Shown: positions 1 to 15,204, numbered from the stretch's first letter. The stretch is 15,204 bases of DNA from a virus (IMGVR_UViG_2913177423_000006:1-15204); one strand, 5' to 3'. Made by a program: numbers and translations. The notes: a model not told the origin generated them from the sequence alone.

Positions 1-555
1 ATGCTTATTGGCTATGTACGCGTATCAACAAATGACCAGAACACCGATCTACAACGTAATGCGTTGAACTGTGTAGGATGTGAACTGATTTTTGAAGACA
101 AGATAAGCGGTACGAAGTCCGAAAGGCCCGGACTGAAAAAACTGCTCAGGACATTATCGGCAGGTGACACACTGGTTGTCTGGAAGCTGGATCGGCTGGG
201 GCGTAGTATGCGGCATCTGGTCATTCTAGTTGAGGAGTTGCGCGAACGTGGCGTTAATTTTCGCAGCCTGACGGATGCTATTGATACCAGCACACCGATG
301 GGGCGTTTTTTCTTTCATGTGATGGGTGCCTTGGCTGAAATGGAACGAGAACTGATTGTTGAACGAACAAAAGCTGGACTGGAAGCTGCTCGCGCGCAGG
401 GACGAATTGGTGGACGTCGTCCCAAACTTACACCAGAACAATGGGCGCAGGCCGGGCGATTAATTGCATCAGGCGTTCCTCGCCAAAAGGTGGCGATCAT
501 CTATGATGTTGGTATATCGACACTGTATAAGAAGTTTCCGGTTGGAGATAAATGA
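1..555 (+). CDS. Serine-recombinase DNA invertase (Gin/Pin/Cin/Hin family), complete 184 aa
   Basis: Starts exactly at window position 1 with MLIGYVRVSTNDQNTDLQ (catalytic Ser in VRVST), conserved WKLDRLGRS and GRFFFHVMGALAEMERE resolvase-domain motifs, and a C-terminal HTH (GGRRPKLT...STLYKK). Near-colinear with Gin/Pin-type invertases as I recall them. Confidence 0.9.
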   Translation: MLIGYVRVSTNDQNTDLQRNALNCVGCELIFEDKISGTKSERPGLKKLLRTLSAGDTLVVWKLDRLGRSMRHLVILVEELRERGVNFRSLTDAIDTSTPMGRFFFHVMGALAEMERELIVERTKAGLEAARAQGRIGGRRPKLTPEQWAQAGRLIASGVPRQKVAIIYDVGISTLYKKFPVGDK

Positions 556-775: not shown

Positions 776-3586
776 TTATTTTTTTAGAGATTGCATTCGT
801 TCATTGAATATGTCCAATGTGTCTTGAAATTCAACAAAGCCTCTATCCTTTATAAGGATTTTAATTAAGTTAGGAAAATCACTTTCTACACCAGCTGTAA
901 TGAAATCTAACTCGCCTAATTTATTCGGGATGTTTTCAGAAACAAATTTGTTAATAACCTCAAGAAATTGATCAGGCATGGCACATCCGCTTGCGACTAA
1001 ATGCAAACATTCCATAATATCGCTTACTGTTGCCAGTGGTAGGTTTAAAATATTACTGTTAATAAACTTGTCTATAATGTCAACGACCTCAGGAGAGCCA
1101 ATCCTTTTGATGTTCAATAATAAACTCTTAGTGATGGATCTTTTCCACTTATCATCAAATAATTGTATTTTTGTTAACGCTAATGTTAATAGTTCAGTGT
1201 TTTTGTATTCGTAATTATGATTCTCTGATAATATGTAAATGTTTCGTAAGATATTGGAGTTAATTACATGCTGGTCATAACCATTTAACTCTCCTGTATT
1301 GATTTTTATAAGTATTACATCCAGGATTTTTAACATATCATCATGGGATTTTTGATACAAAAACTCATTCACAGCTAGAAGATTATGTATGTTTTCATAA
1401 ATATTTATGTTATTAGTTCTGCCTTCTAACAAAGGAAGCAAACCATTTATTATTTTCTTTAACTGGTTTGAACTCCACGGAACACATCCTAATATAATCA
1501 ATAAATTATTGGTCCATCGATCTATTGAAGTGGTATGAATAAAATTTTTATTTTTCAACCTAATCAGGTTGCATATGTTTTCGAGAGAGTTGAGTAAATA
1601 TTTCTTAATATGGTGAACTTCTCTTTTGTCAAGTTTGCTGGTGCTGATTATTATTTTGTCTTTTATTACCTTACTTAAAAATTTTTTGAGTTTTTCTGTC
1701 TCGCAGTATTTTATTAACATAAATAGATCGATTCTATTAACATAGAATATCTCTTCGCATAGATAGTGTTCGAGGCTACTAAGAATATTAAATTCGAAAA
1801 ATTGTTTAACCTCTTTATATTCTTCAATTAAAATTTCGTTGCCTAAAATGAAATACACATAAGGGTACAGTTTCGCTCTTGTTTTAAATTCATCATTGGA
1901 AAATGCTATTCCACCACTCTTTCTTATTTGTGAGTACCCTAAATTCTTCTTCGATTCAACGTCAAATCGATAGTAAGCTTTGTATATTTCATTAAATTCA
2001 AGCATCTTTACTAATTCTTGTAGCTCACTTTGCACCCCCCGTGGAAAATCAATTATTTTACTTTTAAACTCAAATGGAGTATGGCTTTCCATTATTGATT
2101 TACAATCTTCATCAATGTCCTTACCGTTACAGTGTAAATCCGACTTCAACATCCTGTAAGCATAATCAAAATTAGACATGTGAATGGTGGCGAGAATATA
2201 GTTTCTCTCATTAAGATGAAGCTTTACTTTCGAAATAAGAATATCGAGAAGTTTGCCATATTCCTTGTTAATAAGAAGTATTTCAGCATTATCCTTTGAA
2301 TAAGCGAAAGAAATCTTATTGTATAGCTCAGACTCTAATTCTGAAGAACTAATCACCTCATACAGTTTCGAGTCATAACTAACTGTATTTATAAATGCCT
2401 TTTCCAAAATAGATGAGAATGTCTTTTTTAAGTGAGTATTTTTACTCAAAATGTCATTAAGGTATATGCTATTTATTTTCCTGCTATACTCGTCATAATC
2501 AGTCGTCAAAATATTATTGTGGGAGGTTAGTTTAACCCCAGACTTATCATAATCAATGGTACTATTAGTTAATTTTTTACTGATCTGCTCAGGGAGCAAT
2601 ACTTTGTATTGTGTTAATGCTTTTAGTTTGCTATCAACATATTTATTTATTTTTTTTGTTACAATACATTGAATATCATTCTTCAATTTATTTTTATCAA
2701 AATCAGACATTCTCAGGTCATCTTCTATTTTTTTTACCTTTGACTCAGTATAGATCAGGGTCCTCTTTATAAACTCATCTTGGTTTTTAACAAGCTTGAA
2801 ATCACTGAAAAATTTTGAATAAAGATCATGATAGCTAATGTCAGTATTCATCGGTGTCAACAAGGATATCCCATGATTTCTTAAGTAAAGAGCCTGGGCT
2901 GCATCATGATTTTTCTGGAGCAAATATTTTCTTGGTGTTGCTTTTGATATAGTTGTAACCCATGAAACAATCTGTTTTAAATCATAATCACTATAAGAGT
3001 ATCCTAAAAACACAACAGTGTTTGTTGAGAATATTCCTTTTATAAAATTTTCGATAAGTGGAAAATTTTGGCTGTACTGTAAGTAATCATCCTCTTTAAA
3101 AACAAAATTATTCTGTCGAAAATCCCCATGCATCTTTATAATTTTCTTGTCCAAATGACTTTGTGCCAGGTCCACGTCAGAACTAACTAAATCATAAGCC
3201 AATCCTATGTCTTGTGCAGTTTTTTCAAGCAAACTATCCCAGTTGGTTGTAATTATATAGTGGGGGTTTAATTCAAATAGCATCTTATGAAAAAGACTTG
3301 GTTTCAAATCTCTAATTATTGATTTGACTTTTTTAACATAAGAGTTTTGTCCGTATTGAAGAAAGTAAAGTTGGGCTATTTTTAAATAATCATTTTCTTC
3401 AGACAATCCTAAGTCGTCTTTTAGCTCATTTATTAACTCCCTCCAGGTTGGTATTTTTATTAATTCCGTTTCGCTGAATTTAGAAAAACCAGCACCAATA
3501 AAAAGAACTAACTTATTATCTTGACTGGCATTCAATATTTCGTTCAAGTCATATTCAGAAAAAGAAAGTGGATTTAAATTTATCAT
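776..3586 (-). CDS. SIR2-domain protein, 936 aa: N-terminal SIR2-type NAD+-hydrolase domain plus ~650-aa helical C-terminal region; candidate single-gene antiphage defence protein (DSR1/DSR2-like)
   Basis: Long uninterrupted ORF. N-terminus carries SIR2-type motifs: glycine-rich LVLFIGAGFS (res 26-35), IITTNWDSLLE (Asn115), IIKMHGDF (His153), VVFLGYSYSDYDL. Asn-His spacing of 38 residues. The gene is visibly far more AT-rich than its neighbours (by eye, roughly 25-30% GC against about 50%). No partner gene (TIR, HerA, Argonaute) nearby. Confidence 0.8.
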   Translation of the reverse strand: MINLNPLSFSEYDLNEILNASQDNKLVLFIGAGFSKFSETELIKIPTWRELINELKDDLGLSEENDYLKIAQLYFLQYGQNSYVKKVKSIIRDLKPSLFHKMLFELNPHYIITTNWDSLLEKTAQDIGLAYDLVSSDVDLAQSHLDKKIIKMHGDFRQNNFVFKEDDYLQYSQNFPLIENFIKGIFSTNTVVFLGYSYSDYDLKQIVSWVTTISKATPRKYLLQKNHDAAQALYLRNHGISLLTPMNTDISYHDLYSKFFSDFKLVKNQDEFIKRTLIYTESKVKKIEDDLRMSDFDKNKLKNDIQCIVTKKINKYVDSKLKALTQYKVLLPEQISKKLTNSTIDYDKSGVKLTSHNNILTTDYDEYSRKINSIYLNDILSKNTHLKKTFSSILEKAFINTVSYDSKLYEVISSSELESELYNKISFAYSKDNAEILLINKEYGKLLDILISKVKLHLNERNYILATIHMSNFDYAYRMLKSDLHCNGKDIDEDCKSIMESHTPFEFKSKIIDFPRGVQSELQELVKMLEFNEIYKAYYRFDVESKKNLGYSQIRKSGGIAFSNDEFKTRAKLYPYVYFILGNEILIEEYKEVKQFFEFNILSSLEHYLCEEIFYVNRIDLFMLIKYCETEKLKKFLSKVIKDKIIISTSKLDKREVHHIKKYLLNSLENICNLIRLKNKNFIHTTSIDRWTNNLLIILGCVPWSSNQLKKIINGLLPLLEGRTNNINIYENIHNLLAVNEFLYQKSHDDMLKILDVILIKINTGELNGYDQHVINSNILRNIYILSENHNYEYKNTELLTLALTKIQLFDDKWKRSITKSLLLNIKRIGSPEVVDIIDKFINSNILNLPLATVSDIMECLHLVASGCAMPDQFLEVINKFVSENIPNKLGELDFITAGVESDFPNLIKILIKDRGFVEFQDTLDIFNERMQSLKK

Positions 3587-4026
3587 TTTATAACTCTATG
3601 CATGTCTTAAAATTCATTGCTTCCATCAATATTAGCATAATTAAGTATTTCAAATCATAACGATGCTTAATTTATCATTATAATCCATTAACTTGTTCCA
3701 AGTACACCGTCTGCTAGTAATTTCTCCATTAACTGACTTATAAAGTGGGGGACTTCCGTCTCTCTCTCATAACAGACATTCACTACAGTTATGGCAGAAA
3801 GGTATGCAAGCCGGGTGTGGGAAAGTATGAAAGAAAAGAAGACTGCTGCGCCGTTTGTCGTCACATTTATCTTCATTGGCTATGCAAGTCGTAATACAAG
3901 GTGGGACAAAACTGAGACACATAAGGCCTCGCAATGGCTTGCAAGGCTTTACATGTTTTGATGTGGCGGGACGTGTGAGCGCAGTGTTGATGGGGTAATG
4001 CTTTGAATTAGAATCGGATTCTTATA

Positions 4027-4072
4027 ATTCGTAATGCGAAGGTCGTAGGTTCGACTCCTATTATCGGCACCA
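4027..4072 (+). tRNA. 3'-terminal fragment (~46 nt) of tRNA-Thr(CGU), thrW-like; att-type junction, not a complete tRNA gene
   Basis: attcgtaatgcgaaggtcgtaggttcgactcctattatcggcacca gives an anticodon loop ttCGTaa, T-arm gtagg-ttcgact-cctat, 3' acceptor strand tatcggc, discriminator a and CCA. The required 5' acceptor strand gccgata and the D-arm are absent upstream, and the 5' half of the anticodon stem does not pair (tataa vs tgcga). Confidence 0.75.
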
Positions 4073-4237
4073 TTTCAACGTCTTTTCCCGTCTATTAAAA
4101 TCCAACAAACCCGCATATACTCTAGCTTTGAGCGCCCCAGATAGTGTTTTAACGTCTATCAATATCTCCTAAAATCCACGTCTTTTGGGGGGATATTCGG
4201 GGGTATATGCTGTGTGGGCTACTGGAGATACCCCCAA

Positions 4238-5428
4238 ATGAAACTAAATGCCCGTCAGGTCGATACGGCCAAACCGAAAGAAAAACCCTATAAACTGGCC
4301 GATGGTGGTGGGCTTTATCTGCTTGTTAATCCCAATGGTTCCCGGTACTGGCGTTTAAAGTACCGGGTAGCCGGAAAAGAAAAGCTGTTGGCGCTGGGGG
4401 TATATCCCGATGTAACCCTGGCTGATGCCAGGGCGAAACGAGATGAGGCCAAAAGGGGTATGGCTGGGGGGATCGACCCGAACGAAGCGAAGCGGGAAGA
4501 AAAATTGAACCGCGAAGCGCAAATCAAAAACACCTTCGAAGAAATCGCCAGAGAGTGGCATACAGAACGGCAGAAGAAATGGTCTGAGGGGTACGCCTCG
4601 GACATTCTGGAAGCATTCAGTAAAGACATATTCCCTTGGATTGGAAAACGCCCCATCACGGAAATAAAGCCCCTTGATTTGCTGAATACGCTTAAACGCA
4701 TCGAGAATAGGGGAGCGACTGAAAAGGCCCGTAAGGTTCGCCAGTGGTGCGGGGAGGTCTGGAAGTATGCGATCGTTACCGCCCGCGCAGAATATAACCC
4801 CGCCCCTGATCTATCTGTGGCTATGGAAGGACACGAAGGGGAGCACTTCCCCCATCTGGAAGCCGAAGAGTTACCCGAATTTTTCCAGACGCTGGCGACG
4901 GCAAAAAGTAACGTTCAGGTTATTTTGGGGCTGCGTCTGCTTATTCTTGTGGGGTTACGTCCGGTTGAATTACGCGCGGCCCCGTGGTCAGAGATTGATT
5001 TTGATAATGCCTTGTGGGAGATCCCCAAAGAGCGAATGAAGAAAAGACGTCCGCACGTTGTCCCGCTTTCTCGCCAGGCTATGGTTATTCTCGGGCAATT
5101 AAAAGAGTTGTCGGGCCGCAATCCTTTCATTTTTCCGGGCCGGAACGACCCGCGAAAGCCAATGAGTGAAGGAGCAATTAATCAGCTAATAAAGCGACTC
5201 GGGTATAAGGGCAAAGCTTGCGGGCATGGTTTCCGACATACCATGAGCACAATTTTGTATGAGAAAGGGTATAACACCGAATGGATCGAAACCCAGCTTG
5301 CACATGTTGATAAAAATACCATCCGTGGCACATATAATCATGCCCGCTATCTGGATGGACGCCGGGAAATGCTTCAATGGTATGCCGACTATATGGAATC
5401 GCTGGCGAGTGGCAGGGTAAAAGATTAG
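4238..5428 (+). CDS. int: Tyrosine integrase, P4/CP4-57 IntA type (396 aa)
   Basis: N-terminus MKLNARQVDTAKPKEKPYKLADGGGLYLLVNPNGSRYWRLKYR is the classic P4-type integrase arm-binding start; C-terminal catalytic region has HGFRHT and a conserved Tyr in RGTYNHARY. GGAGA Shine-Dalgarno 10 nt upstream of the ATG at 4238; the ORF-track start at 4214 is a GTG extension. Sits immediately downstream of the tRNA fragment. Confidence 0.9.
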   Translation: MKLNARQVDTAKPKEKPYKLADGGGLYLLVNPNGSRYWRLKYRVAGKEKLLALGVYPDVTLADARAKRDEAKRGMAGGIDPNEAKREEKLNREAQIKNTFEEIAREWHTERQKKWSEGYASDILEAFSKDIFPWIGKRPITEIKPLDLLNTLKRIENRGATEKARKVRQWCGEVWKYAIVTARAEYNPAPDLSVAMEGHEGEHFPHLEAEELPEFFQTLATAKSNVQVILGLRLLILVGLRPVELRAAPWSEIDFDNALWEIPKERMKKRRPHVVPLSRQAMVILGQLKELSGRNPFIFPGRNDPRKPMSEGAINQLIKRLGYKGKACGHGFRHTMSTILYEKGYNTEWIETQLAHVDKNTIRGTYNHARYLDGRREMLQWYADYMESLASGRVKD

Positions 5429-5468
5429 AGAAGGTCTAAGACGGGAATACCGCTAAATTAGATGTTAG

Positions 5469-5505
5469 GCGTGGACACTCAGCATCCACGCTTAAACTTT
5501 TTATT
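5469..5505 (+). terminator. Rho-independent terminator downstream of int
   Basis: 7-bp stem gcgtgga (5469-5475) / tccacgc (5485-5491), 9-nt loop, followed by ttaaactttttatt. Confidence 0.6.
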
Positions 5506-5998
5506 ATCATTTTCAATGAATTATGATTTTGGAAATTTTATAAAAAACACCAAGATTACTAATCTATTGATTAATATGAAATATTTCTTTTTTTGATTAT
5601 TAATTGTGCTCTTGATTGTTGTTTTTATGGTGTTAATTTATAAAAATCTTATTTATAGGAATTAACATTATATAGTTGGCACTTTTTGCTAAAATCTGTT
5701 TTTATTGTGTTTTATTTTTATTTCATTTTTGTTGTTGTTTGTTTGATTTTTAGTGTCTTTATATCTGGCTAATTGATTTCACTCAAACCATAAATCCTTT
5801 CAGAGGCTTCTAGAGTCTTCCTGAGGCTTAAATTGACTTAACTAAAAGTCAAGCCCCACATCCCACATACATCTTTTTGACATGCACTTATGGCGTGAAT
5901 AACAATGACTTCATCCAATCTACAGGCATCCTATAAAGTCAATGTCTGTATATAGAAAGATATTACATAACGTTTGAATGTTAATAGCGGGTGTGAAT

Positions 5999-6217
5999 AT
6001 GAGAAATGATGCAATGCAGCTTTTAAACCAAGGAAAAAGATTGATCCGCCTGCCTGAAGTTATGATGCTTACGGGGCGGTGTCGCGCCAGTATTTATAAA
6101 GATATCAATGCAAATGTCTTTCCAAAGCCGATTAAAACCGGCCCGCGTTCTGTCGCATGGGTTGAGGGTGAGATCAGCGACTGGATCGACAACAAAATCA
6201 AAGAGCGCAAAGTGTAA
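5999..6217 (+). CDS. alpA: AlpA/Vis-family phage transcriptional regulator (excision activator-like), ~72 aa
   Basis: RLIRLPEVMMLTGRCRASIYKDINANVFPKPIKTGPRSVAWVEGEISDWI matches the AlpA-family pattern (RLP.V...TG..R.TIY.....FP.P...G.R.V.W...E...W), in the usual position after a P4-type int. Start chosen at the ATG at 5999 (MRNDAMQ...); the ORF-track start at 5978 lacks an SD. Confidence 0.75.
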   Translation: MRNDAMQLLNQGKRLIRLPEVMMLTGRCRASIYKDINANVFPKPIKTGPRSVAWVEGEISDWIDNKIKERKV

Positions 6218-6416
6218 ATCTGATTTTATTCAGAGATGAATATGATTTATTTGAATGCTAAGGATTTTGTGTATTCTTTTTGTTGTAAATACTCGTAGCA
6301 TGGGGAGTTGGCAGTATTTATTCAGTATTAGGTTAAGTGGTTACAAAATACCAGGCAATGCCGGTTTATGCAGTGTTTAATATATTTGTTGCTGGCGAAA
6401 ATTTACGGAAAATTAA

Positions 6417-7289
6417 ATGAACATTACTGATATTATCAGCCATCGCGTATATCGTGATGCGGATCTTGCTGTCATTAATAACACGGCATTTATTCAGCCT
6501 TATGACGGTTGTCACCGTGGTTTGTATGAAATGCGCGTTATTGAACTTTATCGCCTGAATAAAATGATGCACCTTACCCACGAATATAAATCTATTTCCG
6601 GGGAAAGCGTAGGCATTCCGGCGACTAAAGAGGAACTGTTTACACTGGTTAATAAAGGGCATGAACTTTGCCAGTCTGAACGGGAAAAGCTGGCGGCACT
6701 TGAAGCAGAATTGCAGCGTCTGCCAAGCCCGGCTGTAATTCCTGCGCCGCAGACGATTAAAGAAGCACAGCAGGCCCGTAAATCACTAGAAGATGAAAGA
6801 TTCAGACTGCATCACGCAGCAATTAAAAATCAAGTCAAGGCACAGCAGGAAGAGTTATCCATCAGACAAAACATTCTGGCATTGCTCGCGCCGGTTATTG
6901 ATGTGTTGTTGGCCGTGGAAGATGTGGAACTGCTCGATCTGCGCCGTTCCCTGCCTAAGTCATCCCTCGATGCTAAGGCATTCAAAAAGGCGATTTCTGA
7001 AATTGAGTGTGCTGACCTTGCCTGGCAGAAAATGGATAAACTGGAGATTGCCCTTAACAAGGTGGTGAACAACTGCACATATCGCCCGGAAGGAAGCATT
7101 AATCCCCGTTTTGTTAACCCTCTTAATGAAGATAAGCGGGAACGCGCCGAAATATCACGCGATTATTACAGCTCTGAAATGGCCTTTATTCATACGGTGA
7201 TGAGTGCAGATGAATATTTAAATTATATGTTGCCGATCCGTCACCAGCAGCGCGCGCAACGACTCACATTAGAAAGAAATATCAACTAA
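6417..7289 (+). CDS. Hypothetical 290-aa protein with a central coiled-coil-like region; possible scaffold-like partner of the downstream capsid-family gene
   Basis: Clean ORF whose stop lies 10 bp before the next gene, which has an AAGGAAG SD. Middle segment (ELCQSEREKLAALEAELQRL ... QVKAQQEELSIRQNILALL) is heptad-like. No family recognised by eye; functional call is inference from adjacency and size only. Confidence 0.6.
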   Translation: MNITDIISHRVYRDADLAVINNTAFIQPYDGCHRGLYEMRVIELYRLNKMMHLTHEYKSISGESVGIPATKEELFTLVNKGHELCQSEREKLAALEAELQRLPSPAVIPAPQTIKEAQQARKSLEDERFRLHHAAIKNQVKAQQEELSIRQNILALLAPVIDVLLAVEDVELLDLRRSLPKSSLDAKAFKKAISEIECADLAWQKMDKLEIALNKVVNNCTYRPEGSINPRFVNPLNEDKRERAEISRDYYSSEMAFIHTVMSADEYLNYMLPIRHQQRAQRLTLERNIN

Positions 7290-7298
7290 GGAAGAATT

Positions 7299-8306
7299 AT
7301 GTCTTATGTAACACCAGATTATTTAACGCAGTATCACGAAAACCTGATTAAGTCTTTTAATATTAAATATAAAAACGAAGATACGGGGTATTTCACCATA
7401 TCACAGCCGGAAAAAGCATCTCCGGATGCATGGGGATGTTCCACGCTTGATGTTAAAGGCTCGTCCTGGCTGATTGATAATATTTCATTACTGGACATTA
7501 CCGGTGCGGATGGCACGACGATCACCATCGGTGATGGTTCCCTTTATACAGGCCGTGCAAAGGAAGGTCGCTTTCATAAGAAACTAAAAACCAACGGAAC
7601 ACCTTTTTTATTATCAGAAACGGATTCCTGCGCCTCATTGACTTATGAAGAAATGGCGGTAATGGCAAACGCGAAAAATTTCAGTAATGAAATGATCATT
7701 TTTTTCAAGAAGGCCGTGGTGCGGGATATGCTCCGTATTGGATTTAACGGCAAGATGATTGCCGAAAATACCAACCCGGAACAATATAAAAACGGCGAAG
7801 ATATCAATATTGGCTGGCACTCGCTGGCAAAAACATTCAATAACGGTTCACAAATTATTTCTGATGCTTTCGCACTGGGGAAAGGGGGTGATTTTGCCGA
7901 TGTTCACGATCTGGCTGATTGCCTCATCACGTCAAAAATCCCCGAAGGTCAGCGCGAAGATCCGGGCCTTGTGGTGATGGTTGGCGCGCAGCTTGCCGCC
8001 CGCGAACGCCTGAAACTGTTCAACATGGCCGATCAACCACTGACGCTGACGGCGGGGGATATGTTGACAAGCAGTGTCGCCGGTCGTTTTGCCTTTATCC
8101 CGCCGTTTATGCCGGGTAAGCGCCTGGCTGTTACGACGCTGAAAAATTTGCAGATCCTGACGCTGAAACACAGCCAACACTACCGCGCGGAGGATATCCC
8201 GCAACGAGGTGTTTATGAGCATGGCTATTTACGTGAAGAAGGTTACGCGCTGGGGGATGGCTATCTTTACGCGGCCAGCGATGAGAACGCCGTGACGCTG
8301 GTTTAA
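7299..8306 (+). CDS. P2 GpN-like major capsid-family protein homologue (335 aa)
   Basis: Colinear motif matches to my recollection of P2 GpN: RIGFNG vs AGFNG; NIGWHSL vs AVGWLQK; LGKGGDFADVHDLAD vs VGKGGDYASLDALVMD; EDPGLVVMVGAQLAA vs EDPDLVVIVGRQLLA; TTLKNLQI vs ITKLENLSI. AAGGAAG SD 5 nt upstream. Recalled-sequence comparison, not a search, so moderate confidence. Confidence 0.55.
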   Translation: MSYVTPDYLTQYHENLIKSFNIKYKNEDTGYFTISQPEKASPDAWGCSTLDVKGSSWLIDNISLLDITGADGTTITIGDGSLYTGRAKEGRFHKKLKTNGTPFLLSETDSCASLTYEEMAVMANAKNFSNEMIIFFKKAVVRDMLRIGFNGKMIAENTNPEQYKNGEDINIGWHSLAKTFNNGSQIISDAFALGKGGDFADVHDLADCLITSKIPEGQREDPGLVVMVGAQLAARERLKLFNMADQPLTLTAGDMLTSSVAGRFAFIPPFMPGKRLAVTTLKNLQILTLKHSQHYRAEDIPQRGVYEHGYLREEGYALGDGYLYAASDENAVTLV

Positions 8307-8477
8307 AACCTGCTGCAGTACAGCCAGCTTTGACAGTGTTGACCAGATAAAAGAAAACCCCCTCACCGGAACGAACAAGAAACGATGAGAGGGTTTATCA
8401 GGAAGATGATTCTACGCGATGAATTATACCGGGATACAACCGATGCTTACCAGCATAACCACACGACGTAAAAGGGG

Positions 8478-8663
8478 TTATTCCTTTATCGTGTCCAGTT
8501 TCTTACGGCGTTGGCGGCGCTTTATCTCACCCTTTGCCGCAGTTACTAAGAAACCGGCTGTACTTTCTCCAGTTTCCTTTAACTGTTCTATATCCTCCAT
8601 AACCTCATGGGGGATTCTGACGGTGGTCATTTGCGATTTTGCATTCTTCGCACCTGTTGCCAT
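8478..8663 (-). CDS. Ribbon-helix-helix (CopG/Arc-like) DNA-binding protein, 61 aa
   Basis: Minus-strand translation MATGAKNAKSQMTTVRIPHEVMEDIEQLKETGESTAGFLVTAAKGEIKRRQRRKKLDTIKE has the RHH beta-strand/helix pattern (TTVRIP.E....IE.L). GGAGA SD 6 nt upstream of the ATG at 8663. Divergent from the small-gene operon. Confidence 0.5.
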   Translation of the reverse strand: MATGAKNAKSQMTTVRIPHEVMEDIEQLKETGESTAGFLVTAAKGEIKRRQRRKKLDTIKE

Positions 8664-8787
8664 TACTGTTCTCCACTCGAATAGGTGTATTTCAGTATAC
8701 GCAACTAAAAAACAGAAAAAAAGACTTGAAGTGTATTTCACCATACGTGTAGGATTGATTTGCAAGGTGACATACACCTGTAAAGTA

Positions 8788-8820
8788 AAGCCCGGCAGTG
8801 TGGGGACACTAACCGGGCTT
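8788..8820 (+). promoter_or_regulatory. Strong nested hairpin/palindrome in the divergent control region upstream of the small-gene operon
   Basis: Outer stem aagcccgg (8788-8795) / ccgggctt (8813-8820), inner stem agtgt/acact with gggg loop. No U-tract follows, so it is more likely an operator or structured leader than a terminator. Confidence 0.35.
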
Positions 8821-8849
8821 CTGACCAACACGTTAACAGGACTAACGCT

Positions 8850-9053
8850 ATGGCTAAGCCGAAGTGTAACCAAACTCACCCTAAAAATCGCGTATTTCTC
8901 TTTCTTGCGGTATCAAGGGCTGACATGCAGGACAAACCACACCGCGAACAAATCACCGCGTACAGCGAACAGGAAGCCCGTTCCATGCTGGCCGGTCGCT
9001 TTATCCTCTGCTTTGCTGGCTGTCTGCCGGTTCAGGAGGCGCGCCATGTTTAA
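8850..9053 (+). CDS. Possible small leader ORF (67 aa, or 42 aa from ATG at 8925); stop overlaps next gene's start (ATGTTTAA)
   Basis: Open frame whose TAA (9051-9053) overlaps the ATG at 9046. No recognisable domain; C-terminal hydrophobic stretch RFILCFAGCLPV. May be non-coding leader. Confidence 0.3.
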   Translation: MAKPKCNQTHPKNRVFLFLAVSRADMQDKPHREQITAYSEQEARSMLAGRFILCFAGCLPVQEARHV

Positions 9054-9294
9054 CCCACTGGACAACCGTAAAGCGGCGGCGCTTAACCCGTTCCACGATG
9101 ACTGTTACGATCCGCCAGCCTTTATTAAACCGGGTTCAAAAGTAGTGGTTGAAATTGATTCCCGTGAAATGGAAGTCGCTATTCTAGCCGCTTATGACTA
9201 CGGACTGGACGCGCTGAACGACGATGGCCGGGAAGAGCTTAACCGCTTAATTGCTGACCTGAAAGACCAGATAACGGAGGCGCGGTATGCATAA
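9046..9294 (+). CDS. Hypothetical small protein (82 aa), first gene of the translationally coupled operon
   Basis: AGGAGG SD 6 nt upstream of the ATG at 9046. Stop overlaps the next start (ATGCATAA at 9287-9294). The ORF-track start at 8419 is a stop-free upstream extension. Confidence 0.65.
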   Translation: MFNPLDNRKAAALNPFHDDCYDPPAFIKPGSKVVVEIDSREMEVAILAAYDYGLDALNDDGREELNRLIADLKDQITEARYA

Positions 9295-9712
9295 TCTGCT
9301 TAATTCACCGTTGCCAGTGTCTATGGATCTCTTTCAGGCTGGCGAGATGTGCGGGCATTTTGTCGCGCGGTTAACGGATGAAAGTTGTGTTGACGAGACT
9401 GAACGCGTCGCACTTTGCGGACGTCTGGCTTTTGCCCTGCGTTCTCTTTCATCTCTTTGTGATACAGACTATCCATCGCATATCCAGGCGCAATTAACCG
9501 CGACTGCTATTCCTGCTCCCTGCGTACCTGATGAGTGGATCGACGCGACGATCATGACGGGCTATTGCACCGCCTTAAATGATGCGCTGCTTAGTCGCTC
9601 CCTTCGTATGGACGTTGAAACACAATTACGCTGGCTTTTGCATGACATGATTAATTTACTTGTCAGATATCTGAAACAGCCTTGTATTAAGGCGGGAGTA
9701 GATCATGTCTGA
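9287..9712 (+). CDS. Hypothetical Cys-rich protein (141 aa)
   Basis: Start overlaps the previous stop and its own stop overlaps the next start (ATGTCTGA at 9705-9712). No family recognised. Confidence 0.6.
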   Translation: MHNLLNSPLPVSMDLFQAGEMCGHFVARLTDESCVDETERVALCGRLAFALRSLSSLCDTDYPSHIQAQLTATAIPAPCVPDEWIDATIMTGYCTALNDALLSRSLRMDVETQLRWLLHDMINLLVRYLKQPCIKAGVDHV

Positions 9713-10112
9713 AATTATGCTCACACCGTTTCACGTTGACCGCCATTTTTACGATCTGGTTTACGGTGCTTCATTTTTTGCGGATGCATTACCTGCAATG
9801 AATGATATCAAGCAGCAGCGGCTTTATTGTCGATTATTGCAATTAAATCTGGTTGTTTTATTTGAAAAACGGTCGCGGGATATTCCCCCAATTCAGTCGA
9901 GTAAAATAAAAATCGCTGATGAGGTTATATTTCTTAATGTCGATAATATTTATCATGCGCTTTCCCTGACTGCCGGGCTGATAAGTCAGGATATCAGTAA
10001 GGGGATTGAAAAAGAACTGGCTGAATATATCAGGGATATTATTAGTATTATTTTTAATGAAATGCGAATGCAGATGGTTGATTATGATCCCTATGAAATG
10101 TGGGACGACTAA
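9705..10112 (+). CDS. Hypothetical protein (135 aa), acidic C-terminus
   Basis: Translationally coupled to the upstream gene; no family recognised. Confidence 0.6.
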   Translation: MSEIMLTPFHVDRHFYDLVYGASFFADALPAMNDIKQQRLYCRLLQLNLVVLFEKRSRDIPPIQSSKIKIADEVIFLNVDNIYHALSLTAGLISQDISKGIEKELAEYIRDIISIIFNEMRMQMVDYDPYEMWDD

Positions 10113-10199
10113 AACAATAATCGATTTATAAGAACTGAAAAACATTTAATTATAACCGTATTTTAACGGGGAGTAATTACGCCCCTGTAAGGAAAATAT

Positions 10200-10469
10200 A
10201 TGTCTGATTTGAATACCATTGCTGTTAATAGTGCTGAAAAATATCTTAGCCTTGAGTGCTTCCATAAACTCAACCGCGCAAGGAATGTTTCATTCCAGAT
10301 GCATTTACAGATCCGTCAGTGTGAGATAAACGGCCTGCCACTTTTATGGATTCCAGATATTTTCAGCTATATCAGCGAAGACATATCCGCCGTTCTGGAA
10401 GAAGCCAAAGTACTTGGCCTTTGCGATAAGTTCACAGGCGAAGCCCGGATCGGTCAGGTCAGTCTTTAA
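10200..10469 (+). CDS. Hypothetical protein (89 aa) upstream of the primase
   Basis: ORF with a GGAAAA region before the ATG; followed by a T-run and GC-rich palindrome gcgccgc-ccgct-gcggcgc (10483-10501) before the primase start. Confidence 0.5.
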   Translation: MSDLNTIAVNSAEKYLSLECFHKLNRARNVSFQMHLQIRQCEINGLPLLWIPDIFSYISEDISAVLEEAKVLGLCDKFTGEARIGQVSL

Positions 10470-10532
10470 TTTTTTGTATTCCGCGCCGCCCGCTGCGGCG
10501 CATTGTCTTACCCATTAATAAAGGTCATACCG

Positions 10533-13265
10533 ATGCAAGGTAAAAAAGTTTCACAGACAGCAGGACGCGCAGCGGGCCAGTGGGAAAATATTCTTGAACA
10601 CCTGGGGATTACTGTTCCTGCGGGTGGTCTTCATGGCCCCTGCCCGATCTGCGGCGGTAAAGATCGTTTTCGCTTTGATAATAAAAAAGGGCGTGGAACC
10701 TGGTTCTGCAACCAGTGCGGCCACGGTGACGGGCTGGATCTGGTCAAACTGGCGCTTTCGCTGGACACCGGGCCAGCCGCTGATCGAGTTGCTGAATTAC
10801 TTCCGGCCCTTCCTCCGCCTGCGGTCATGCAGCCTGCCAGAAAAGAAGCCAGTGACGAAGGTCGCCCACATGACTACTGGCAACGCCTCTTTGCCCGTAC
10901 TCAGCCGGGGGAAAGCCCTTACCTTACGGCGCGGGGGCTGACAGGTTTTGAACTGCCGCTGACCGTTCAGGAGATGAAAACCGCTGGCGGTGTTTTTCCG
11001 GCTGGTTCGCTTTTATTACCGATCACGGACACCGAAGGACGGATGACCGGTGCACAGCTTATCGGCCCGGACAAGGTAAAAGGCTTATGTGCTGGCACCA
11101 GGAAAAAAGGGCGTTTTATCTCTGTCGGGCCGTTCCCGGTGAAAACGCCCGCGCGGATCATTATCTCGGAAGGCTTTGCCACTGCGTTAAGCGCATCCCT
11201 GCTTTCAGAGGGCTGGAGTATTGCGGCGCTGGATAAAGGCAACCTGAAAGACGTTGCGGAGCAAATCCGCCAGAAATGGCCGGACGTGCAGATCGTTATT
11301 GCCGGTGATAATGACTTTTCTGACGGTAAACCCAATCAGGGGAAAGAGTCTGCGATCAAAGCTGCACTGGCCGTTAAGGGATGGATGACCATTCCTCCCG
11401 GACGGATCAAAGTTGACTGGGATGATTACCGCCGTGAATTTGGCCTCCAGCGCGCCCGTGACGCATTCGCGGAAGAACTGCTTAACCCGGCAGACACCGA
11501 AACGCGTTTACCGCATGGTTTCCGCCTGACGAAGGATTATCTTTGGTTTGATCGCCCGCTCAGTGACGGTAGCGAAAGCGGCCAGACTCGCCAGGTGAAG
11601 ATATGTAGCCCGCTCAAAGTGACGGCCATCACCAGCGACGGCGAAGGCGGTAAATTCGGGCGTCTGCTTGAGTGGGAAGACTCCAGCGGATTACGGCATG
11701 AATGGGCGATGCCAATGACAGTGCTTGCCGGAAGCGGTCAGGAGCTGCGGGAGGTTCTGCTTGATAACGGAATGCACTTTATCAGCGTGAACGGCGCGGC
11801 GCGTAGCTATCTGATGGAATACATTTCTAACTGTCGCCCGGTTCGCCGCGTCACCTGCGTTGAAAAAACAGGCTGGTTTAGCGGTGCATATGTTCTCCAG
11901 GATGAGGTGATCGGCAGCGATGCCGGATCGGTGATCCTTCAGTCTGCTATGTCGTCTAAAAATGACTTCCGGGTGAGCGGAACGGCGGCGGAATGGGCGC
12001 AACACGTCGGGCGCTATTGCGCCGGTAATTCCCGCCTGGTGTTCTGCGTCAGTCTGGCGCTGGCCGCGCCGTTGCTGAATCTTATCGGCGTGGGCGGCGG
12101 CGGTTATCACCTTAAGGGCGAATCCACGGACGGCAAGACAACCACAATGAAGGTGGCGGCGTCAGTCTGCGGCGGGCCTGATTTCTGGAAAACGTGGCGG
12201 GCAACCGGAAACGCGCTGGAAGGTATTGCGCTACGCCGTAATGATGCCGCCCTGATGCTGGATGAAATCAGCGAAGTTGACGGCAGAGAGGCCAGCCGGA
12301 TCGCCTATATGCTGGGGAACGGGCAGGGCAAAGCAAGGGGGCGCGTTGATGGCAGCGTCCGCGATCCGGTGACCTGGACATTGCTTTACCTGTCCACCGG
12401 GGAAATCTCTATTGCGGAACATGCCGCCGAAGCCGGAGAAAAGCGAACCGGCGCGGGTGTCGGTGTGCGTATGGTGCAAATACTCAGCGATACCGGAAAA
12501 CATGGCGCTTTCGAAAATCTCCACGGCATGGAAGGCGGTAAAGCGTTTGCGGAATACCTTGAACAGTCCTGTAAACAGTATCACGGTGCGCCGTTCCGCG
12601 AATGGTTGCGCTGGCTGGCGGCAAACCTGACGGAAACTGCGAACCGGGCGCGGGCAATGAAAAAAGAGTATGAACGGACATTATTACCCGAAGATTCCGG
12701 CAAGCAGGTCGGGCGCATTGTGGATCGCTTTGCGCTGTTAGCCGTTGCGGGGGAACTGGCAAGCGAAGCGGGGATCACCGGCTGGCTACCCGGTGAAGCG
12801 TATAACGCTGCAAGAAGCTGTCTGGCGGCATGGCTTAACGATCGCGGACATGCGGCCAACCAGGAAGAAGCCGACGCGCTGGAGAAGGTGCGGCGCTTTA
12901 TTACGGCGAATCAGTACACACGCTTTGCTGACTGGTATGACGAGAAAAACCGCCCGTCAAATATGGTTGGTTTTCGCCGGGTGGAGAAAGGCGGGAACGG
13001 TATCGGCATGAGCAAGAAGGAGAACAGCGGCGATACTGTTAAAGACGGGGACGCCACTAAAGAGCCGGAAACCACATTTTATATCCTGCCCAGCGGATGG
13101 AAGGAGATTTGCGGGACGTCGGACAGCGTTAAAACGGCGAGACTATGCGACGAGGCTGGATGGCTTGTAAAGGATGAAGATCGCCAGCGCCTACAACGTA
13201 CAGTAAGACTACCGGAAATTGGCTTAAAGAAAGTGTATGTGTTCAGCGGCGAAGTGATCGGATAA
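10533..13265 (+). CDS. P4 alpha-type DNA primase/helicase (zinc-binding domain, Toprim primase, P-loop NTPase)
   Basis: Zinc ribbon CPICGGKDRFRFDNKKGRGTWFCNQCGHGDGLD; Toprim motifs IIISEGFATA and VIAGDNDF; Walker A GESTDGKTT and Walker B LMLDEI. Start set at ATG 10533 (MQGKK...); the ORF-track start at 10503 is a TTG. Confidence 0.9.
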   Translation: MQGKKVSQTAGRAAGQWENILEHLGITVPAGGLHGPCPICGGKDRFRFDNKKGRGTWFCNQCGHGDGLDLVKLALSLDTGPAADRVAELLPALPPPAVMQPARKEASDEGRPHDYWQRLFARTQPGESPYLTARGLTGFELPLTVQEMKTAGGVFPAGSLLLPITDTEGRMTGAQLIGPDKVKGLCAGTRKKGRFISVGPFPVKTPARIIISEGFATALSASLLSEGWSIAALDKGNLKDVAEQIRQKWPDVQIVIAGDNDFSDGKPNQGKESAIKAALAVKGWMTIPPGRIKVDWDDYRREFGLQRARDAFAEELLNPADTETRLPHGFRLTKDYLWFDRPLSDGSESGQTRQVKICSPLKVTAITSDGEGGKFGRLLEWEDSSGLRHEWAMPMTVLAGSGQELREVLLDNGMHFISVNGAARSYLMEYISNCRPVRRVTCVEKTGWFSGAYVLQDEVIGSDAGSVILQSAMSSKNDFRVSGTAAEWAQHVGRYCAGNSRLVFCVSLALAAPLLNLIGVGGGGYHLKGESTDGKTTTMKVAASVCGGPDFWKTWRATGNALEGIALRRNDAALMLDEISEVDGREASRIAYMLGNGQGKARGRVDGSVRDPVTWTLLYLSTGEISIAEHAAEAGEKRTGAGVGVRMVQILSDTGKHGAFENLHGMEGGKAFAEYLEQSCKQYHGAPFREWLRWLAANLTETANRARAMKKEYERTLLPEDSGKQVGRIVDRFALLAVAGELASEAGITGWLPGEAYNAARSCLAAWLNDRGHAANQEEADALEKVRRFITANQYTRFADWYDEKNRPSNMVGFRRVEKGGNGIGMSKKENSGDTVKDGDATKEPETTFYILPSGWKEICGTSDSVKTARLCDEAGWLVKDEDRQRLQRTVRLPEIGLKKVYVFSGEVIG

Positions 13266-13362
13266 GACCTGCTGACACCGCTATAACTAACGGTGTTGGC
13301 CAGCTTCCGGTCCTGGAAACATAGCCAGCCAGGAAGAAGTGATCGCACGTATCATATTTTTT

Positions 13363-13575
13363 AGTGGGAACAGTGGGAACATAGGGAACAGACTTGATTT
13401 ATAAAAGTTTTATTTGTTCCCAATTACTGTTCCCATATGGTAACAGGTGGTAATGTATTTTAAATCATATGGTTATGTTGATATGCAAAGCGTTGTTCCC
13501 AGTTGTAAAAGAGAGATGGGAACAGGAAAAAGGTATAAATATCAACACTGTTACCATTGTTCCCACTGTTTCCAC
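13363..13575. repeat. Iteron-like array: about 10 copies of octamer TGGGAACA / TGTTCCCA in both orientations; candidate ori/crr-type primase-binding region or integrase arm-type sites
   Basis: Read directly: direct copies at 13366, 13375, 13384 (9-bp period); inverted copies tgttccca at 13415, 13428, 13494; tgggaaca at 13517; tgttacca / tgttccca / tgtttcca at 13549, 13558, 13567 (9-bp period). Confidence 0.7.
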
Positions 13576-13649
13576 CATTTTTGACAATAACAATGTTTAA
13601 TTTCGGGGAAAATGCTTTTCCCTGGCTGGCTAACATCAAAGGTGAAGAA

Positions 13650-14198
13650 ATGAGCATCAAGAAACGTCCTGATGGAAAATGGCTGGTAGATATCCGCCCC
13701 AATGGGCGGAACGGGAAACGCGTTAGGCGTGTTTTTATGCTTAAGCGTGAGGCTGAAAGTTTCATAAGATATACAAAGTGGCGAGCAATGCAGTCTGAAC
13801 CCACAAGAACAATCAAACCAGCATTTGAATATTATACCCTTTATGAAGCGTGTGAAATCTGGTGGCGTTTAGTGGGTCATACAAGAATTAACGCAGAAAC
13901 TGAAAAGCGTCAGCTTGAAAAGACTATCAGGCAAATGGGGAATCCTTATGTTATGGAACTTAAATATACACAATTAATTCAATTTGTAATGTTACGATTA
14001 TATTCATGCAATAAATATGTTTCTATTCGGCGTGATCTTTACAGGCTGTCAGGTATGTTTCGTGATCTGATAAAAATAGGTGAATATAATTCTAACCCCA
14101 TGAAAGGGGTTGGTTCATTAATGAACGAATGTAACCGACGTTTAGCCATACACGTTAGCAATCCTTGCTGGGTTCAATGGTGGAGAGGGGTAAAATAA
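13650..14198 (+). pseudogene. Tyrosine-integrase N-terminal fragment (arm-binding plus core-binding region, 182 aa), lacking the catalytic domain; probable integrase remnant or stand-alone DNA-binding protein
   Basis: MSIKKRPDGKWLVDIRPNGRNGKRVRRVFMLKREAESFIRYTKW is the typical P2-type integrase arm-binding N-terminus. The ORF stops after ~180 aa with no R..HxxR..Y catalytic region. AGGTG SD before the ATG at 13650. Confidence 0.5.
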
Positions 14199-14217
14199 AT
14201 GGGAGTAATAAGTGATA

Positions 14218-14475
14218 TCAGTTTTGAAGCAATTCTTTTATCATTGTTTTTTGTTCCGGCGTCATCATGTCAATCATTGTTTTTACTGCTTTCTCCCCAG
14301 TCAGCGCGCTGGGGCTTAGCGTATGGGAGAACGTCATATTCATAACGAAGGTATGCCCACATTCAACATTATTACAGGCACAATACATATCAGACAGGTG
14401 TGGATGCTTGCGTACTGTCTTTTTTGTTGTTGAATTACTTCCACACTCAGGACAAACAATTTTATGGCTGCGCAT
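14218..14475 (-). CDS. Ogr/Delta-family zinc-finger transcriptional activator (85 aa)
   Basis: MRSHKIVCPECGSNS...YCACNNVECGHTF gives Cys spacing C-x2-C-x20-C-x-C-x4-C with the NV.C motif of P2 Ogr / P4 Delta. GGTGA SD 5 nt upstream of the ATG at 14475; the ORF-track start at 14529 is probably an upstream extension. Confidence 0.7.
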   Translation of the reverse strand: MRSHKIVCPECGSNSTTKKTVRKHPHLSDMYCACNNVECGHTFVMNMTFSHTLSPSALTGEKAVKTMIDMMTPEQKTMIKELLQN

Positions 14476-14895
14476 AATAATCACCACTCGTAAAAGGCGC
14501 ATTATTATACCACTATTTGCATTAAACAAAAAAAGAAGTTGATATAAATTATCAATAATATCATCGTATTATGTTATTCCATTCTTTCCTTGCTTTTATC
14601 TTAGTGTCACGTAATTTGATTTTTTTTTATTTTAATTTTCATGTGGTTACGTTATTTTTGTTAAAGATTGAATTTTACGAAGACTGAAATTACTGAAATC
14701 CTTTGCAATTGATTGCATTTTTTTCAGTCTCAAATTTCATGTAAAACCCCGTTTAACGCCTGTTCTGGCGGTTCTTTCCTGCAATTTTCCAAACTGAAAA
14801 AATTCTCACTACGTAAACACCGTGGGCGTGCGGGTGAGCGCGGTTTTGGTCCCGCTGGCGTTTGCGTCGTAACAAGTCAGAAACATACAACCACA

Positions 14896-14914
14896 TGTAC
14901 AACTAGCTGTACAT
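14896..14914 (+). promoter_or_regulatory. Putative yefM-type operator: two TGTACA hexamers 13 bp apart, ~45 bp upstream of the antitoxin start
   Basis: catGTACAActagcTGTACAtatg read directly. The E. coli yefM-yoeB operator is known to be built from TGTACA-core palindromes. Confidence 0.5.
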
Positions 14915-14958
14915 ATGCAATACTTACGACGTAATAACTTGGCGGACGGAAAAACACT

Positions 14959-15204
14959 ATGCAACACGTAAACTATACCGATGCTCGACAGCATTTAGCT
15001 GACCTGATGCAGCAGGCTAATGATGATCGTGCCCCAATCCTGGTTACGCGTAAGGGTGCTAAAAGCGTAGTAATGATCGATGCGGAAGAGTTCGCATCGA
15101 TTCAGGAAACGTTACACCTGTTCAGTAACCCGGCGAACGCCGCACACATTGAAGCCAGCCTTGCATCGCTCGAACGCGGCGATTATGAGGAACTGGACAT
15201 TTAA
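14959..15204 (+). CDS. yefM: YefM/Phd-family type II antitoxin (81 aa)
   Basis: MQHVNYTDARQHLADLMQQANDDRAPILVTRKGAKSVVMIDAEEFASIQETLHLFSNPANAAHIEASL aligns with E. coli YefM as I recall it. Stop codon is the last triplet of the window, so the cognate toxin would lie beyond the window end. Confidence 0.85.
   Translation: MQHVNYTDARQHLADLMQQANDDRAPILVTRKGAKSVVMIDAEEFASIQETLHLFSNPANAAHIEASLASLERGDYEELDI

Follow-up and report, generated by a model that had tools for sequence, protein, structure and literature searches.

A stretch of Escherichia chromosome at the thrW locus (15,204 nt, IMGVR_UViG_2913177423_000006:1-15204; hereafter the window, with coordinates counted from its first letter) carries an integrated element that we read, with a probability of about 0.65, as a P4-like satellite of ESSI-2-like peduoviruses in which a capsid subunit of the element's own and an assembly partner replace Sid and Psu. 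The helpers are most likely ESSI-2-like (Seongnamvirus-type) peduoviruses and not P2 itself. An initial annotation of the window had proposed a distinct satellite family rather than a canonical P4 copy. That proposal was right in outline, as a compact architecture bounded by attachment (att) sites and lacking Sid and Psu recurs in five genera; what it overlooked were the capsid gene, an epsilon-type protein, a cos-like element and the full thrW-bounded extent. Three features carry the present reading, the second being a P2-family major capsid protein (MCP) and the first the open reading frame (ORF) beside it:

6417-7289, plus strand: ORF290, a conserved all-helical protein without an assigned family, immediately 5′ of the capsid gene
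7299-8306, plus strand: P2-family MCP (HK97 fold), 335 residues, of a satellite-specific clade (PF05125, 1.3e-54; phrog_70, 3.3e-72)
14690-14865 (approximate), plus strand: cos-like packaging site, a conserved non-coding element shared with ESSI-2-like peduoviruses

The capsid gene product covers PF05125 profile positions 3-324 of 327, belongs to a PHROG family annotated as 'major head protein' (phrog_70) and hits gpN from the P4 procapsid (structure 7JW1) by sequence comparison (2.6e-12); the annotation as a capsid protein is already present in RefSeq relatives. Its identity is 41-49% to the MCPs of ESSI-2-like phages versus 22-23% to P2 gpN, and it scores 156 bits against the equivalog cut-off of 220 that NCBI sets for P2 capsids (TIGR01551). 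In a neighbour-joining tree, a simple method applied here to a small sampling, eight satellite MCPs form a single clade that is sister to the ESSI-2-like phage MCPs and distant from P2 gpN. Compared at the nucleotide level with five P2-like phage loci, the window shows similarity only within the MCP and ogr genes. Both members of the capsid module are under purifying selection, with ratios of non-synonymous to synonymous substitution (dN/dS) of 0.11 for the MCP and 0.17 for ORF290 against a Salmonella relative.

ORF290 is proposed to be the capsid-assembly partner. The position immediately 5′ of the MCP gene is constant across the family, and in other subfamilies it is occupied by homologues with 20-27% identity. 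The protein family comprises 91 clusters at 90% identity. In a set of 1.84 billion proteins it has only 19 representatives at 50% identity, which, apart from one 46-residue fragment, measure 278-308 residues. Searches of Pfam, PHROG, NCBIfam, PADLOC and Protein Data Bank (PDB) sequences returned no match, and the protein is absent from 50,697 phage records. The initial annotation had listed homology of this 290-residue ORF to Sid or Psu as a finding that would change its reading; profile comparisons with Sid, Psu and gpO, including hhalign, all gave probabilities below 1%. An AlphaFold2 model built from a diverse alignment is all-helical and confident, with a predicted local distance difference test score (pLDDT) of 82.9 and a predicted template modelling score (pTM) of 0.75; this deeper alignment was used in place of an earlier shallow one, whose model (pLDDT 53) was discarded as unusable. 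Foldseek searches of the model against PDB and BFVD found nothing significant, only non-specific helical matches. ORF290 could act as a scaffold, a size determinant or a decoration protein. In the Pectobacterium relative L009, an extra 169-residue gene follows the MCP gene (3563-4072 of that record) and matches the N-terminal (protease) domain of gpO only. The presence of a gpO-type protease domain beside the MCP supports a role of this module in head assembly.

The link to a particular helper group comes from a conserved non-coding element found 3′ of ogr in all family satellites read. It was detected by a conserved-k-mer scan across distant satellites and then by exact-pattern scans, and its parts are a G-rich core, two boxes of the AACTGAAAAA type and a short palindrome; in the window a AACTGAAAAA box lies at 14792-14801 and the core GGGCGTGCGGGTGAGCGCGG at 14824-14843. 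The core type of the window occurs in three viral contigs, two of which are 32.5 and 32.9 kb long, and is identical across 37 nt to that of the 32.9-kb phage contig L143, whose genes for DUF2586, tape-measure, Baseplate_J and tail-fibre proteins form a set typical of ESSI-2-like peduoviruses. At least 120 viral contigs of IMG/VR, many of them 29-34 kb long, contain the other core type, GGCGGGTGCGGTGTAGTGC. Core types co-vary in satellites and phages: the window and the Salmonella element L016 share theirs with phage L143, and L009 and the Salmonella element L012 share theirs with ESSI-2, L035 and L038. The linear GenBank record of Cronobacter phage ESSI-2 (L144, NC_047854) starts with GCGGGTGCGGTGTAGTGCCG and ends with GCAGGCGGGTGCGGTGTAG / ...AACTGAAAAAATTTTGCGATCCAAAACTTGCAGGCGGGTGCGGTGTAG, so that both termini lie within the conserved core. 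A stretch of 15 nt, GCGGGTGCGGTGTAG, is repeated at the two ends (within 1-20 and at 28751-28765), which suggests that the deposited record retains a cohesive end read twice in sequencing. Because the ESSI-2 ends lie in the conserved core and carry a 15-nt repeat, as in cohesive-ended DNA, we infer from sequence comparison that the conserved element is cos.

Other candidates for this site and for its carriers were set aside. Neither a 19-mer search with up to three mismatches nor blastn-short with the P4 and P2 cos regions found a P2-type or P4-type cos in the window, and the cos-like region itself gave zero blastn matches to the phage collection. Viral contigs of 10-15 kb that contain the cos core, considered as possible packaged satellites, have neither the satellite MCP nor alpha and resemble fragments of phages. 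Among the phages, the ESSI-2-like contig L018 from E. coli encodes ParM/StbA-like and plasmid-stability proteins beside gpA (2108-3386) and shows no integrase in the part read; the ESSI-2-like group may be maintained as a plasmid prophage.

The capsid gene recurs in satellites of the same design. MCP homologues were detected in 199 clusters, and the genomic context was read for nine. Seven of the nine are satellites: Pectobacterium L009, E. coli L010, Salmonella L012, L014, L015-17 and L019, and Serratia L013. Their shared order is alpA, an unannotated ORF of 273-311 residues, MCP, immunity region, (DUF5375 or epsilon), alpha, (Ogr) and cargo, with int at one end, and it is found again in Phytobacter L003 and E. 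coli ST131 L020, so that the family spans the five genera Escherichia, Salmonella, Pectobacterium, Serratia and Phytobacter. The other two are ordinary-phage contexts, with portal, terminase, gpO and tail genes: that of L018 and that of L002, L005 and L006. Elements bounded by att repeats measure 10.1-12.0 kb and occupy several kinds of site:

L012: Salmonella, thrW, att repeat of 19 nt, 11,262 bp
L009: Pectobacterium, tRNA-Arg, att repeat of 23 nt, 11,956 bp
L013: Serratia, tRNA-Arg, att repeat of 36 nt, 11,604 bp
L014: Salmonella, non-tRNA site, att repeat of 30 nt, 10,098 bp
L016: Salmonella, argW, att repeat of 18 nt, 11,669 bp

This recurrence bears directly on whether the window merely holds a degraded P2-like prophage whose capsid gene and ogr survived and became fused by chance to a P4-like island, the outcome that would have undone the initial annotation. 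MCP and Ogr are indeed the sole P2-type genes and flank P4-type genes, and a truncated phage-type integrase fragment adjoins ogr. Against this, the same compact arrangement with intact att repeats and a size of 10.1-12.0 kb is found in at least five genera, the satellite MCPs are monophyletic and stand apart from phage MCPs, ORF290 occurs in 0 of 50,697 phage records, and tblastn detected no fragments of other P2 structural genes. We regard the degraded-prophage reading as effectively refuted, with hardly any probability left to it.

Within E. coli the window's exact subfamily is rare, occurring in 4 of 5,426 complete genomes; the four copies are 94-99% identical across most of their length. 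Positions 4000-15204 are 98.8% identical to E. coli JNEC-KY203 (record L001), and at least 80% of that interval is covered in only three of these genomes. More distant relatives of the capsid gene are present in 515 of the 5,426; the one inspected, in an ST131 strain, is a family satellite at argW.

Between cos and the element end the cargo varies from member to member. The element described here carries yefM-yoeB (slot from 14866 to past the window end), L012 carries GmrSD (16070-17626), L009 retron Ec48 (9539-11436), L020 sce7726/sce7725 (14822-16675) and L019 MazEF (18038-18621). By its position this slot looks like the counterpart of the P4 defence hotspot beside cos.

Around the capsid module, the element is built from P4-type and accessory genes:

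4028-4073, plus strand: left attachment site, consisting of the last 46 nt (3′ end) of tRNA-Thr (thrW); the exact thrW 3′-end match is found once
4238-5428, plus strand: P4-type tyrosine integrase with Arm-DNA-bind_3, Phage_int_M and Phage_integrase domains
5978-6217, plus strand: AlpA/Vis-type regulator and excisionase (PF05930, 1.5e-18; 39% identity to P4 ORF88/vis)
8478-8663, minus strand: YlcI/YnfO-family small protein, divergent from the early operon (NF041551, 5.5e-18; annotated in a RefSeq relative)
8850-9053, plus strand: Icd-like (P4 kil-like) early-operon leader, 67 residues (NF033153, 5.1e-18)
9046-10112, plus strand: three overlapping small early-operon ORFs of 82, 141 and 135 residues, from the ORF list
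10200-10469, plus strand: epsilon-type helper derepression protein, 89 residues (PF25738, 3e-22; 45% identity to P4 epsilon, 2.8e-17)
10503-13265, plus strand: alpha-type primase/helicase, 920 residues, with Zn_Ribbon_Prim, Toprim_3 and DUF927 (phrog_1139, 4.4e-167)
13366-13564, both strands: iteron cluster, eight copies of TGTTCCC, immediately 3′ of alpha
13557-14198, plus strand: Int_N-type tyrosine recombinase, N-terminal part only (PF24624, 4.7e-16; Phage_integrase catalytic domain absent)
14218-14529 (start at 14475 in RefSeq relatives), minus strand: Ogr/Delta zinc-finger late-gene activator (PF04606, 6.2e-15; phrog_603)
14959-15204, plus strand: yefM antitoxin gene, cargo (PF02604, 2.3e-22); yoeB follows past the window end, as seen in L001

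Domains, identities and shuffling bear out the P4-type integrase, AlpA, alpha-type primase/helicase, iterons and Ogr/Delta gene named by the initial annotation. The integrase is 44% identical to P4 Int and 65-66% identical to the integrases of the thrW elements L003 and L012. The N-terminal 320 residues of alpha are 37% identical to P4 alpha (E 8e-50), and its C-terminal part is DUF927-type and yields no tblastn alignment with P4 alpha. The eight TGTTCCC copies within 13366-13564 exceed the 1.64 expected for the entire window, and eight was reached in none of 200 shuffles; the cluster follows alpha just as crr follows alpha in P4, and the sequence there is 71% identical to what follows alpha in L014, which shares this alpha type. 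The Icd-like ORF is 38% identical to the C-terminal part of the P4 'cI' ORF region (kil/Icd region). Of the three small ORFs behind it, none has a family match in profile searches, and those of 141 and 135 residues are kept in Salmonella L016 with dN/dS of 0.11-0.20.

From the succession of Icd/kil-like, epsilon, alpha and iterons it follows that the early operon is collinear with that of P4. The earlier description of a non-P4 gene order consequently fails for alpA (vis), the icd/kil-like gene, epsilon, alpha and the iterons, and stands for the capsid-related part. The 89-residue epsilon-type protein is an Epsilon homologue in canonical position, one of the findings that the initial annotation had named as counting against its reading. 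Its placing of all genes between alpA and the primase on the plus strand gives way to the minus-strand YlcI/YnfO-family gene, a candidate immunity regulator. An Rfam scan of the window at E<=1 found no C4/cI-type immunity RNA. The absence of recognisable Sid and Psu is upheld: six-frame tblastn was empty even at E<=10, and no ORF had a Pfam or PHROG match to either.

The sole Delta-like gene lies past the primase on the opposite strand, as had been described. Its product is 85-103 residues long, 57-60% identical to the Ogr proteins of satellite L003 and a P2-like phage fragment, and closer to phage Ogr (57%) than to P4 Delta, which it matches weakly (E 0.008). The minus-strand orientation is not peculiar to this copy and is shared by Salmonella L015-L017, argW relatives in which minus-strand ogr is followed by yefM-yoeB. 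Because L016 has both inside its att repeats, they belong to the subfamily and are no accident of the window copy.

Two further observations concern this part of the element. An inverted repeat (ccccctca...tgagaggg, 8350-8398) shortly 3′ of the capsid gene stop, missed by a consensus terminator scan, may be a terminator closing an alpA-ORF290-MCP transcription unit. The Int_N-type recombinase truncated in the window is full length (328 residues) at the same post-alpha place in Salmonella L019 (15691-16677) and is the sole integrase of Salmonella L014 (2403-3401); this recurring protein may serve as a resolvase or a further integrase, or may be left over from an exchange of modules.

Taken together with the cos-like site, these genes suggest a life cycle in which the satellite would reside at thrW through its P4-type integrase, with AlpA serving excision and regulation. 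The epsilon-type protein would derepress a helper prophage, alpha would act on the adjacent TGTTCCC iterons to replicate the satellite, and Ogr would cross-activate late genes. The copy of the helper cos would let the helper terminase cut and package the genome of about 11.6 kb, and the satellite MCP with ORF290 would build, or co-assemble into, satellite-sized heads on the helper portal. The helper would supply portal, protease/scaffold, terminase, head-completion proteins and tails.

A stronger version of this scheme, which we hold tentatively as possible rather than probable, sees a minimal capsid-forming lineage in which the MCP and a helical partner of about 290 residues, perhaps a deep relative of the Sid/Psu fold, redirect ESSI-2-like head assembly, and in which the subunit itself, not an external cage, sets the size (probably T=4, about 11 kb). 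If true, this would be a third strategy, intermediate between remodelling of the type seen in P4 and in Staphylococcus aureus pathogenicity islands (SaPIs) and the complete heads of phage-inducible chromosomal islands of the capsid-forming kind (cf-PICIs), and about 9% of complete E. coli genomes, ST131 among them, as well as many Salmonella would carry the lineage.

The extent of the element is wider than the interval 4238-14529 first proposed: it runs from 4028 to past the window end and includes the cos-like site and yefM-yoeB. A tRNA scan of the window found no complete tRNA. The thrW fragment at 4028-4073 matches attP of SfII/SfV/P22-type phages, and the sequence 5′ of it is phage DNA identical to the attP region of SfII/SfIV/SfV-type phages; the fragment is accordingly both the right junction of an upstream prophage and the left junction of the element. 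In JNEC-KY203 the element lies between the tail-fibre/invertase end of a prophage and yagP'/paoD. The final 19 nt of the fragment (4055-4073) are the counterpart of the att repeat in L012, the thrW relative from Salmonella, where the 19-nt repeat TCCTATTATCGGCACCATC flanks the 11,262-bp element. No clean right att repeat lies within the window; the best candidate, read in L001, is a degenerate thrW copy, ACTCTTATTATCACCATTA as compared with the left copy ACTCCTATTATCGGCACCATT, about 470 bases past the window end and after yoeB. Measured from 4028-4073 to this repeat, the element is about 11.6 kb long; the P4 genome is 11,624 bp.

Short repeats of the GGGGG(A)TA type (ggggggatattcgggggtatatg) lie just 5′ of int at 4186-4236, and repeats resembling them (gggggtacaattgggggtacg) lie by the degenerate right att (L001 23583-23603); they may be integrase arm-type sites. 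Upstream of the element, the tail-fibre region of the neighbouring prophage ends with a Hin/Pin-type serine invertase gene (window 1-555), followed by a hairpin (533-589) with a sub-threshold Rfam CssrB match (36.7 bits against a gathering score of 76, terminal stem-loop only). Between the invertase gene and the thrW fragment, in a block of 30% G+C, a minus-strand gene (776-3586) encodes a 936-residue protein with an N-terminal SIR2_2/ThsA-like domain (Pfam 3.9e-24; PADLOC ThsA 4.4e-29). A near-identical E. coli record has a DUF262 protein in the same slot, and the position looks like a variable defence slot ending the upstream prophage.

Several points weigh against a satellite that packages itself with its own capsid subunit. 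Pfam, PHROG and tblastn scans of the ORFs found no portal, terminase, protease or head-completion gene, and tblastn with P2 Q, P, O, M and L gave zero matches in the window. With no head-partner genes in the element, the lone MCP must fit helper parts, and the helpers' own MCP is about 45% identical to it. No member has an Ogr-type TGT-N12-ACA box 5′ of alpA or ORF290, which leaves late-gene control of the capsid operon unsupported. Our view of the ESSI-2 record ends as physical cohesive ends comes from the 15-nt terminal repeat; we found no paper in which these termini are mapped. The window's cos variant is found in no complete E. coli genome beyond the four satellite carriers among the 5,426, so that a helper would need to arrive by infection. 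No virome-derived satellite contig was found, the sole 11.2-kb IMG/VR match coming from an isolate genome. Finally, the window copy itself combines a degenerate right att with a truncated second recombinase.

These last features raise the question of whether the window copy is a decaying, immobile remnant locked beside another prophage, within a family that may itself be functional. The disagreement between ACTCTTATTATCACCATTA and ACTCCTATTATCGGCACCATT, the shortened post-alpha recombinase and a subfamily found in only 4 of 5,426 complete E. coli genomes, none with a cos-matched phage, would all fit such a fate. Yet the main ORFs are all intact, identity among the four E. coli copies is 94-99% across the greater part of the element, the genes are under purifying selection when compared with the Salmonella relative, and a 32.9-kb phage contig has a cos core that agrees with this one at all 37 nt. 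On balance we find it somewhat doubtful that this copy is immobile.

The lack of head partners also invites a different role for the MCP homologue, as mainly an interference or defence factor: a dominant-negative subunit that poisons or mis-sizes helper capsids, with ORF290 as a chaperone or an inhibitor of the helper scaffold. The protein has diverged, falling under the TIGR01551 cut-off and being 41-48% identical to the MCPs of the putative helpers; portal, protease and connector genes are missing; members of the family bear defence cargo (retron Ec48, GmrSD, toxin-antitoxin pairs); and proteobacterial PICIs are reported to carry capsid-related 'morphogenesis' genes thought to modify hijacked capsids (PMC10085698). 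However, a full-length capsid profile match together with a dN/dS of 0.11 fits a protein that still needs to assemble, and the retained helper cos and P4-sized genome make sense only with packaging. We consider interference unlikely as the main function, and it is compatible with self-packaging, P4 Sid doing both. A P4-like satellite with its own capsid subunit and assembly partner, mobilised by ESSI-2-like helpers, remains the reading we prefer.

P4-like satellites have been defined, also in SatelliteFinder, by Int, Psu, Delta, Sid, AlpA, epsilon/Ash and Alpha, with psu-delta-sid as the helper-subversion module (PMC8628076, PMC10085698, PMC13586616). The element carries five of these seven components when its Ogr/Delta-family gene is counted as Delta; it lacks Sid and Psu and departs from P4 in its late-operon order. 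With P4 it shares a length of about 11.6 kb, integration at a tRNA gene, a P4-type Int (44%), AlpA/Vis, an Icd/kil-like leader, epsilon (45%), the alpha primase domain (37%), iterons just 3′ of alpha like crr, an Ogr/Delta-family activator, a cos apparently copied from the helper lineage and a probable cargo/defence hotspot beside it. Unlike P4, it is without Sid, Psu and the divergent psu-delta-sid operon, has a single-domain Ogr after alpha in place of the tandem Delta, has a DUF927-type C-terminal part in alpha and no C4/cI RNA found, carries a cos-like site of ESSI-2-like and not of P2 or P4 type, and places a P2-family MCP gene and ORF290 between alpA and the immunity region. The 2023 census describes 'Type C' subfamilies in Salmonella and Escherichia without two core genes, whose complementation 'remains unknown', and leaves a capsid gene unmentioned. 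The literature searched, with incomplete coverage, yielded no description of P4-like satellites with a P2-family MCP; as far as we found, a capsid-gene-bearing P4-like satellite tied to ESSI-2-like helpers is a widespread, undescribed subfamily. This lineage is probably overlooked or under-classified by satellite census tools that rely on Psu and Sid, and the members read here carry defence and toxin-antitoxin cargo beside cos.

With ESSI-2-like peduoviruses (Seongnamvirus; NC_047854) the element shares a sister MCP, a homologous Ogr and the cos-like element down to its core variants. These phages, of 29-33 kb, have full sets of head, tail, lysis and replication (gpA) genes, whereas the element has only the MCP and ogr of these. 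A concrete helper group matched by cos variant is thereby named, which makes mobilisation easy to test.

Capsid-forming islands offer the other comparison. Like cf-PICIs such as EcCIEDL933, the element has its own major capsid protein on an int, alpA and primase backbone. The cf-PICIs encode portal, protease, head-tail adaptor/connector, TerS, TerL and HNH, whereas the element has the MCP and one partner only, its MCP is of the P2 family, and Ogr, epsilon and the cos-like site tie it to a peduovirus. The whole head and packaging set is among the cf-PICI core components in the 2023 census (PMC10085698). The literature describes cf-PICIs as taking only tails from the helper (bioRxiv 10.1101/2022.09.08.507074, PMC10085698) and states that before them the small capsids of the satellites analysed were all made of phage proteins (bioRxiv 10.1101/2022.09.08.507074). 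Gram-negative PICIs with a 'capsid morphogenesis' gene (PMC10085698) share the int, alpA and primase core and a capsid-related gene, which in them is thought to change the form of the capsid; the element differs in that its packaging specificity apparently comes from a cos copy and its regulators, epsilon and Ogr, are P4-type. No terminase-related family, and hence no small terminase or Rpp packaging-redirection gene, was found in any ORF scanned. Lacking portal, protease, connector and terminase genes, the element falls outside both the cf-PICI and the PICI definitions.

To our knowledge, the small capsids of known satellites are made either from helper capsid protein reshaped by scaffolds (P4 Sid, SaPI CpmAB) or by a complete head module (cf-PICI). 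If our reading is correct, an abundant enterobacterial lineage with a capsid subunit and one partner represents an intermediate solution, and it poses the structural questions of what fixes the T-number and how a foreign MCP would work with the portal, protease and terminase of the helper.

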